A stretch of 64,000 nt of DNA from Nitrospirales bacterium (GTDB lineage Bacteria; Nitrospirota; Nitrospiria; Nitrospirales; UBA8639). The notes beneath the pieces are model-generated. The model did not search any database, was not told the DNA's origin, and saw nothing but the letters and a program-made list of their open reading frames with translations. Where the stretch lies: the NCBI GenBank assembly GCA_963555755.3, contig OY820905.2:2592001-2656000 (forward strand), read 5' to 3'. Shown in pieces: positions 52,459 to 53,921 of the stretch (the stretch's first letter is position 1; each line of letters starts with the position of its first letter). The translations under genes were made by a program, and so were the position numbers.

Positions 52459-52977
52459 ATGGCCATTTCCCAAGCCACTCTTCAGAATTACGCTGGCCGC
52501 GCACCTCTTGGAAAATCGGCTTCTATAGTGAGGGAAGCCAAGATTGCCGGGAAGCAAACTGCCTTTCTTTGCCATAGTCATTTAGACGGTGATTTGGCAA
52601 AGGGGGTTCAAGGATTCCTCCAAGATCAGGGATGGGATGTTTACATTGATTGGGAAGACACAACGCTCCCTGATACGCCAGATAGGATGACAGCAGAACA
52701 GATTCAAAGAAAAGTTCGTGACCTTGATTGGTTTTTGTTCCTAGCAACGGCAAATTCGATGAGGAGTCGTTGGTGCCCATGGGAGATTGGATATGCGGAT
52801 GGAGTTAAGCAATATGATGCTATCCTAATTATTCCAACGACGGATAGTTTAGGGGCCTTTTACGGGAACGAGTATTTGCGACTTTATCGCCAGATTACAG
52901 GAGCAGAAGGTGGAGGGTACGGGGCATTTCGACCTAATAATGGAGGATGCTTGCTTAAAAGTCTTTCTCTCCCATAA
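52459..52977 (+). CDS. TIR domain protein
   Basis: AFLCHSHLD, VYIDWED, FLFLATANSMRSRWCPWEIGYA with catalytic Glu. Confidence 0.9.
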   Translation: MAISQATLQNYAGRAPLGKSASIVREAKIAGKQTAFLCHSHLDGDLAKGVQGFLQDQGWDVYIDWEDTTLPDTPDRMTAEQIQRKVRDLDWFLFLATANSMRSRWCPWEIGYADGVKQYDAILIIPTTDSLGAFYGNEYLRLYRQITGAEGGGYGAFRPNNGGCLLKSLSLP

Positions 52978-53009
52978 TGGTGAGTTAGGCGAAGGATAAG
53001 GTTGCTCCC

Positions 53010-53426
53010 ATGGAACAGAAAACGAAACATATGGAGTTCATACAAGGTGTAATTAACCGCCTGTCTCAGAACTCCTTTCTTTTAAAAGGGTGGAGTGTGG
53101 TCCTCATATCAGCGCTTTTTGCTTTATCCGCTGGGGATTCCAACCCTGCCTTTATTGTTTTAGCATATATTCCCGCTTTTATTTTTTGGGGTTTAGACGG
53201 GTATTTCCTTCGGGAAGAAAGAAAATTTAGGGCGCTGTACGATCATGTGAGAATTCTTAACGAGGATGAGATTAATTTTTCGATGGATACGTCAGTCGTC
53301 AAGGATCAAGTGAAGGGCTGGTCATCAGCGACCCTTTCAAAAACACTCGTTCCGTTTCATGGTGTTTTAATTGGTGCTATTTTCGTTGTGATGATTTTAA
53401 CTCTTTACCAACAGGGAGAGTCATAA
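53010..53426 (+). CDS. small multi-pass membrane protein, putative effector
   Basis: HMEFIQGVINRLSQNSFLLKGWSV; ~3 hydrophobic segments; FWGLDGYFLREERKFRALYD. Confidence 0.8.
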   Translation: MEQKTKHMEFIQGVINRLSQNSFLLKGWSVVLISALFALSAGDSNPAFIVLAYIPAFIFWGLDGYFLREERKFRALYDHVRILNEDEINFSMDTSVVKDQVKGWSSATLSKTLVPFHGVLIGAIFVVMILTLYQQGES

Positions 53427-53921
53427 ATGGCTCGGTGTTTCTACAGTTTTCATTACAAACCAGATGTCAGCCGCGCTTCACAAGTTCGTCAGATTGGCGC
53501 TATCGAAGGGAATAGACCAGCCACTGACAATGACTGGGAAACGATAACCAGGGGAGGGGATGCTGCTATCGAGAGATGGATAGCAGATCAAATGAAATAC
53601 CGATCATGCACAATTGTTCTTGTTGGCAGTAATACAGCCAATCGAAAATGGATAAACTACGAGATCAGTGAATCTTGGAATGCTGAAATGGGCTTAGTTG
53701 GCATTCGGATACACGGCCTTAAAAACTTTGACCAACAAATTTCCACAATGGGGGGCAACCCGTTTGACTACGTTACATTTAAAGGATCGGGGAAAAAATT
53801 TTCTTCATTAGTGAAGTGTTACAACCCAGGAGGCACGACAAGTAAAGAACGGTATGCGTGGATTTCACAGCATTTAGCTAATGCAGTGGATGAGGCTATC
53901 AAGATCAGAAAAGAAAATTAG
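53427..53921 (+). CDS. Thoeris ThsB-like (MTH538/DUF1863) TIR protein
   Basis: CFYSFHY..D..R..QVR, NDWE, I.RWI..QM...SCTIVLVG..TANRKWINYEI. Confidence 0.88.
   Translation: MARCFYSFHYKPDVSRASQVRQIGAIEGNRPATDNDWETITRGGDAAIERWIADQMKYRSCTIVLVGSNTANRKWINYEISESWNAEMGLVGIRIHGLKNFDQQISTMGGNPFDYVTFKGSGKKFSSLVKCYNPGGTTSKERYAWISQHLANAVDEAIKIRKEN

Follow-up and report, generated by a model that had tools for sequence, protein, structure and literature searches.

A TIR–membrane protein–TIR operon from a Nitrospirales bacterium is a probable type V Thoeris locus

Three adjoining genes of a Nitrospirales bacterium, encoding two unlike TIR proteins and a small three-helix membrane protein between them (Table 1), probably constitute a type V Thoeris system in which both TIRs may feed the membrane effector. 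Judged by its profile matches, the operon is an already catalogued anti-phage candidate, PDC-M50, and not a new system; it is likely an ordinary further example of a known one. The first-pass annotation of the window, by which we mean the whole 64,000-nucleotide stretch of DNA analyzed, had put it forward as a candidate new Thoeris-like defence system, a claim that falls because genes 2 and 3 match PDC-M50A and PDC-M50B and because the gene layout is the one known as type V Thoeris, the pairing of ThsB with ThsF described in a preprint of December 2025 (Yirmiya et al., bioRxiv 10.64898/2025.12.03.692087; hereafter Yirmiya et al., 2025). The accompanying proposal that a TIR-derived signal acts on a membrane effector fares better: the evidence favours it, and the mechanism is probably right.

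Table 1. Coordinates of the operon and of neighbouring features in the window.
Feature	Positions	Strand	Description
IS1595-family transposase copies	45524-47342, 55434-56369, 57593-58528		Two confirmed by Pfam, others near-identical
AIPR gene	47360-49111		Upstream of operon; Pfam/PADLOC
Type II R-M set	49919-52212		Upstream of operon; Pfam/PADLOC
Gene 1, TIR protein 1	52459-52977	+	172 aa; ThsB-type candidate sensor/signal enzyme; catalytic E109
Gene 2, membrane protein	53010-53426	+	138 aa; three TM; PDC-M50A family; likely ThsF effector
Gene 3, TIR protein 2	53427-53921	+	164 aa; ThsB / PDC-M50B; catalytic E79

All three open reading frames are intact and co-oriented, in the order TIR, membrane protein, ThsB TIR. 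Gene 1 is separated from gene 2 by 32 bp and the TAA of gene 2 (53424-53426) directly abuts the ATG of gene 3, so the tight packing reported at first pass is borne out by the coordinates. Contigs from three of the four runs span the whole operon and agree with it at every base, and the fourth, an RNA run, gives contigs over part of gene 1 only, with one 1-base gap at a depth of 2.4. The GC content of the genes is 41-47%, against 51% for the genome, and a scan of the locus for promoters and terminators stays at chance level (4 sites against 4.2 expected, and 3 against 1.7). As had been proposed, the operon sits inside an island with AIPR and restriction-modification genes, both located upstream, and IS1595 copies bracket this defence island. 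The island DNA (49200-54200) is found in none of six genomes of the same genus, and among 30 relatives a single genome (G775) matches this interval, with the same TIR-membrane-TIR order. Within the restriction-modification set, an 18-base segment present in the window at 52121, in the control-protein gene (51967-52212), is missing from the contigs of each of the three deep runs; the discrepancy reflects a slip in assembly or a difference between strains. Elsewhere in the window, the GC-rich gene at 61403-63517, which we take to belong to the Sel1-like repeat family, has repeat text that moves from one reading frame to another several times, which points to frameshifts or to errors of assembly.

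The two TIR proteins belong to different families and are barely similar to one another (best BLASTP E 0.077). Gene 1 is assigned to Pfam TIR_2 (41.4 bits against a cut-off of 28, E 2.4e-10) and matches both the PADLOC ThsB profile PDLC00419 (E 2.4e-64) and PDB chain 8btn_B (E 5.5e-17). Gene 3 is assigned to Pfam ThsB_TIR (96.6 bits against a cut-off of 21.2, E 1.3e-27), matches PADLOC ThsB at E 1.7e-64, and finds PDB chains 8wcf_A (E 1e-32) and 6lhy_A, the ThsB of B. cereus (E 4e-16). We take 8BTN and 8WCF to be type I Thoeris TIRs; a literature search returned no paper that names two or more of 8BTN, 8WCF and Thoeris. The catalytic glutamate that the first-pass annotation saw in both domains is kept in each: the WCPWEIG motif of gene 1 starts at residue 105 and places it at E109, invariant in all five rows of a small alignment, while the WINYEI motif of gene 3 starts at residue 75 and places it at E79, invariant in all 14 rows of another small alignment. 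A search of the genome found no other TIR.

The catalogue assignment consists of PADLOC-DB 2.0.0 profile matches together with gene adjacency. Gene 2 matches four PDC-M50A profiles, the best being PDLC04686 (E 6.2e-52, 173 bits), where residues 1-130 cover positions 1-131 of 134, and the abutting gene 3 matches the PDC-M50B profile PDLC04688 (E 6.1e-61) over positions 3-161 of 162; a search of PADLOC for an already named system, one of the checks that bears on novelty, thus returns a match. The operon resembles PDC-M50 in having a membrane gene and an adjacent TIR that are both nearly full-length, and differs from it in the second TIR of another family lying upstream. PDC systems are presented as predicted phage defence candidates for future functional study, and the label 'M50' is absent from the main text of the preprint that describes them (Payne et al., bioRxiv 10.1101/2024.01.29.577857). 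A literature search found no paper for PDC-M50.

Hydropathy resolves three hydrophobic segments in gene 2, starting at residues 23, 49, and 112, in agreement with the roughly three transmembrane segments counted at first pass. Its AlphaFold2 monomer (pLDDT 93.6) is all-helical, with helices at 2-40, 53-82, and 113-136 arranged as a long helical hairpin and a C-terminal helix. At the same hydropathy threshold, 79 of 124 family members have three such segments, 39 have two and six have one. Eight positions are conserved in at least 118 of these 124 members (Q12, R17, K26, W28, L62, D63, E70, and R74), all on helices 1 and 2 and mostly at their polar ends; the counts for six of them are Q12 (121), R17 (122), K26 (123), D63 (122), E70 (120), and R74 (118). 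The two conserved polar segments singled out by the first-pass annotation as a possible ligand site do contain most of the top-conserved residues (Q12, R17, D63, E70, and R74), but K26, kept in 123 of 124, lies outside them. Scans with Pfam, PADLOC, and NCBIfam recognise no ligand-binding domain in gene 2, and no NCBIfam model matches it. Foldseek gives no match at E≤0.001, and the best VIA-align hit (Z 9.3, rmsd 4.7, 131 residues aligned) leads to generic helical bundles; the fold searches thus indicate neither a new fold nor a relation. Two proteins of the family are fusions that carry the gene 2-type membrane domain at their C-terminus: P0253 (378 aa), with a SLOG domain as its N-terminal part (LD_cluster2, E 1.7e-15), and P0246 (362 aa), whose N-terminal part is without a Pfam match and looks similar by eye to that of P0253.

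The membrane family is very large: at E≤0.001 it numbers 5013 cluster representatives, or about 5000 clusters at 50% identity. It is found in 8 of 301 genomes of the same phylum and in 13 of 300 Gammaproteobacteria, as well as on plasmids and phages. A survey of gene neighbourhoods places a same-strand TIR within 1 kb of the membrane gene in 42 of 50 near-full loci, a descriptive count, since these same loci supplied the neighbours used to build the TIR profiles (with seeds checked against Pfam, weakly so in L029, L030, and L013) and some loci are kin; it excludes nine duplicate or own loci, six from the DUF2270 searches, one spurious match (L047), and eight partial copies. At least two TIRs occur in nine of the 50, with TIRs on both sides in five, and in the remaining 41 at most one TIR lies within 1 kb. 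Partial copies have a TIR in two of eight cases. All seven copies from the phylum of this genome (one of them partial) have a TIR, and in the evenly drawn Gammaproteobacteria the figure is 5 of 11 near-full copies (L036-L039 and L043), with short flanks in two of the six lacking one. Solo copies of the membrane family therefore exist. One such solo gene (L042:1498-1908) lies between type I restriction-modification methylase and specificity genes, another (L044:1492-1827) is broken by a stop, each with no TIR within 1 kb, and at L009 a separate SLOG gene comes after the membrane gene, with no TIR found. Elsewhere, the gene immediately preceding the membrane gene is a large one of the LRR-Roc-COR-TIR kind, which represents another class of TIR sensor (L058:1-2785), and in a 14-kb Vibrio phage record (Vinavirales) a TIR and the membrane family directly follow the integrase (L030:1347-2635).

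Evidence on the signal comes from the company that these TIRs keep. A reverse survey covered the best 80 of 320 metagenome loci holding relatives of TIR 2 (65-76% identical), and among these 80 the membrane family is present in 61 and ThsA in 11, nine of the latter with a full SIR2-STALD ThsA and two more with ThsA sequence; in four further loci of the 80, another TIR is accompanied by a SLOG gene of the LD_cluster3 family. The TIRs of one membrane-partnered locus (L089) and one ThsA-partnered locus (L097) are 90% identical. In a quick tree the ThsA-partnered TIRs are scattered among the membrane-partnered ones (8 rows, 7 changes, against a shuffled mean of 7.7, with 107 of 500 shuffles as low), a tree that labels L085 as membrane and L127 as other, ThsA sequence having later been found in both. 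Of the relatives of TIR 1, one (L165, 62% identical) lies beside the membrane family and another (L166, 51%) beside a SIR2-STALD ThsA. Among the best 80 of 320, L085 alone holds both effectors, the membrane gene there being a 40-aa piece, and ThsA, this piece, and a TIR stand in a row (L085:667-2989); the locus may capture one effector in the course of replacing the other. ThsA is activated by 3′cADPR (Yirmiya et al., 2025), and since the TIR clade is shared with ThsA, the TIR 2 clade likely makes 3′cADPR and the membrane protein likely senses it.

Identification of the membrane family with ThsF itself draws on the published description. According to the available text of the preprint, ThsF has three membrane helices, is labelled DUF2270, is modelled by AlphaFold 3 as a heptameric ring with basic inter-subunit pockets, and adjoins TIRs whose cluster is also found with SIR2-SLOG ThsA (Yirmiya et al., 2025). 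At the level of sequence, the DUF2270 (PF10028) link of gene 2 is marginal. The sole Pfam match of gene 2 at E≤0.1 is to DUF2270, at 18.1 bits against a cut-off of 25; among 148 representatives one passes that cut-off (P0282, 25.2 bits, 48% identical to gene 2), and the sole other cut-off passed is that of a TIR in a fused entry. At E≤0.1, DUF2270 is matched by 19 of 117 close and 13 of 124 wider relatives, and DUF3278 by 19 of 117 and 20 of 124. Comparison of the family with the narrow DUF2270 alignment (Neff 2.7) by hhalign gives probabilities of 1.8, 1.5, and 5.2%, none of them significant, and forward cross-scores lie slightly above reversed controls (medians 1.7 against -1.4, and 0.1 against -1.7). 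Gene context speaks more strongly than the Pfam scores. Full-length DUF2270 proteins are longer (median 227 aa against 137 aa in the gene 2 family) and rare, exceeding the cut-off in 2 of 151 and 3 of 300 genomes. Their genes have no TIR nearby in any of five loci, and none occurs in 94 TIR-anchored loci, which makes them poor candidates for the TIR-linked effector of the preprint and the gene 2 family a better one. Of the families seen, the one of gene 2, which is TIR-linked, three-helix, and weakly DUF2270-like and shares its TIRs with type I systems, is thus the best match to the effector that the preprint describes, and gene 2 is likely a ThsF.

It is improbable that the operon is a TIR-signal, membrane-effector system whose PDC-M50A protein is something other than ThsF, namely another of the predicted membrane effectors (Figure 1C of the preprint) or the type IX effector, yet this is the alternative that survives best. 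The weak DUF2270 scores, with one passing representative in 148, hhalign probabilities of at most 5.2%, and DUF3278 ahead by 20 to 13 in the wider set, speak for it, as does the absence of a named Pfam among the 30 nearest Atlas clusters of gene 2, the nearest named cluster being 8xMP at 0.85. The preprint, in the text available, also lists 29 putative Thoeris types, several of them with membrane effectors, and reports that type IX TIRs likewise make 3′cADPR (Yirmiya et al., 2025). Against it, the three transmembrane helices, the DUF2270 trace, and the sharing of TIRs with type I fit the ThsF account; neither the 451 genomes scored for PF10028 nor the 94 TIR loci contain a rival TIR-linked DUF2270 family; and the abundance of the family in the two genome samples is like that of type V, which occurs in about 1.2% of genomes across many phyla (Yirmiya et al., 2025). 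We give a similarly small chance to the corollary that PDC-M50A is a separate, very widespread Thoeris effector, a minimal three-helix 3′cADPR-gated pore that would dispense with any known ligand-binding domain, could be swapped with ThsA on the same TIR, and here would serve two unlike sensors.

For the type V reading of the operon, the signal, effector ring, toxicity, and phage defence are inferred by analogy with the systems described in the available text of Yirmiya et al. (2025). Phage infection would trigger a TIR, which would convert NAD+ into a cyclic ADP-ribose signal, likely 3′cADPR; this would bind a ring or oligomer of the gene 2 protein, and the oligomer would then damage the membrane, halting the infected cell and aborting the infection. 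The conserved residues of helices 1 and 2 fit the basic inter-subunit pocket modelled for ThsF, and on our own reading R17, K26, and R74, at the polar ends of these helices, may line the ligand pocket. The reverse assignment, in which the TIRs are toxic NAD+-depleting effectors and the membrane protein a sensor, anchor, or regulator, is very unlikely: the preprint does caution, in its available text, that some TIRs in unverified operons may deplete NAD (Yirmiya et al., 2025), and the membrane gene lacks a recognised ligand-binding domain, but TIR 2 falls in the ThsB signalling family, near-identical TIRs partner ThsA as signal makers, and in P0253 the membrane domain is fused behind SLOG, the usual layout of a ligand-gated effector.

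The two TIRs are, again on our own reading, possibly alternative sensors for different phages that share one effector, and the second TIR is most readily explained as an additional sensor, since most loci need only one TIR, some have a TIR 1-type protein as their only TIR partner, and Thoeris systems with more than one thsB copy are known; an extra TIR is a common Thoeris feature. That the two instead make different signals which are both needed, or that TIR 1 is an unrelated orphan sensor beside a two-gene system, is least likely of all: the TIRs do come from different families, one tested type V system was silent to 3′cADPR alone (Yirmiya et al., 2025, available text), and the TIR 1 type flanks the TIR-membrane pair in few loci (with an identical order in L003 and L010), but one TIR seems enough in the 41 near-full loci with one or none within 1 kb, and the TIR 1 type is the sole TIR partner in L027 and L169-L171 and also occurs in the ThsA loci L166 and L167.

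If the operon is a type V member, it adds one more candidate locus to type V Thoeris. How ThsF binds 3′cADPR and breaches the membrane is known so far from modelling only, and the gene 2 family offers candidate pocket residues (R17, K26, R74, D63, and E70). Natural effector swaps on 90%-identical TIRs, together with the two-sensor layout, make a modest test case for whether each TIR serves different phages.

Among the known Thoeris types, type VII resembles the operon in joining a TIR to a small membrane effector, the SLATT protein ThsH, and uses canonical cADPR (Yirmiya et al., 2025, available text); it differs in that gene 2 has no SLATT match at E≤0.1, and SLATT models did match other TIR neighbours in the surveyed loci. 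Type I is close on the TIR side, TIR 2 sharing homology with the B. cereus ThsB (6LHY) and 66-72% identity with TIRs adjoining ThsA, and differs in its effector, since no SIR2-STALD ThsA is found in this genome. SIR2_2 has no match in the 99.4%-complete genome (control positive in 1 of 14), nor has a local ThsA profile, which does detect ThsA in 14 other loci; genome searches for STALD and ThsA_Macro are also negative, their controls having given no signal. Gene 2 has no Macro match in Pfam or PADLOC, and no caspase-like effector appears among the proteins scanned around the operon, so the earlier observation that no known ThsA effector is visible at the locus stands for SIR2-SLOG ThsA across the genome and for caspase-like proteins nearby.

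Type V is, with PDC-M50, among the closest known systems. A literature search on DUF2270, ThsF with Thoeris, and type V Thoeris returned the Yirmiya preprint only, whose available text reports that the type was validated experimentally with systems from the Bacillaceae (B. thuringiensis DAR 81934 and Bacillus sp. 1NLA3E), that its TIR makes 3′cADPR upon infection, that added 3′cADPR impairs growth when cells carry the B. thuringiensis system and did not poison one of the two systems tested, that Tad1 lowers defence by the B. thuringiensis system, and that the type is enriched in Bacteroidota and includes a four-copy Psychrilyobacter island (Yirmiya et al., 2025). Gene 2 is likened to the tested ThsF by this published description and not by sequence, and none of 10 family proteins looked up carries the name of a tested strain; the family does occur in Bacillus thuringiensis (P0399, 49% identical) and other Bacillaceae. 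The operon departs from type V in that gene 2 scores below the DUF2270 cut-off and two dissimilar TIRs flank the effector. It agrees with type V in setting a ThsB TIR with its catalytic glutamate beside a three-TM putative effector with a marginal DUF2270 trace, in a genome where no SIR2-SLOG ThsA is detected, in drawing on a TIR clade common to type I ThsA, and in belonging to a family spread over the Bacillaceae and many phyla.
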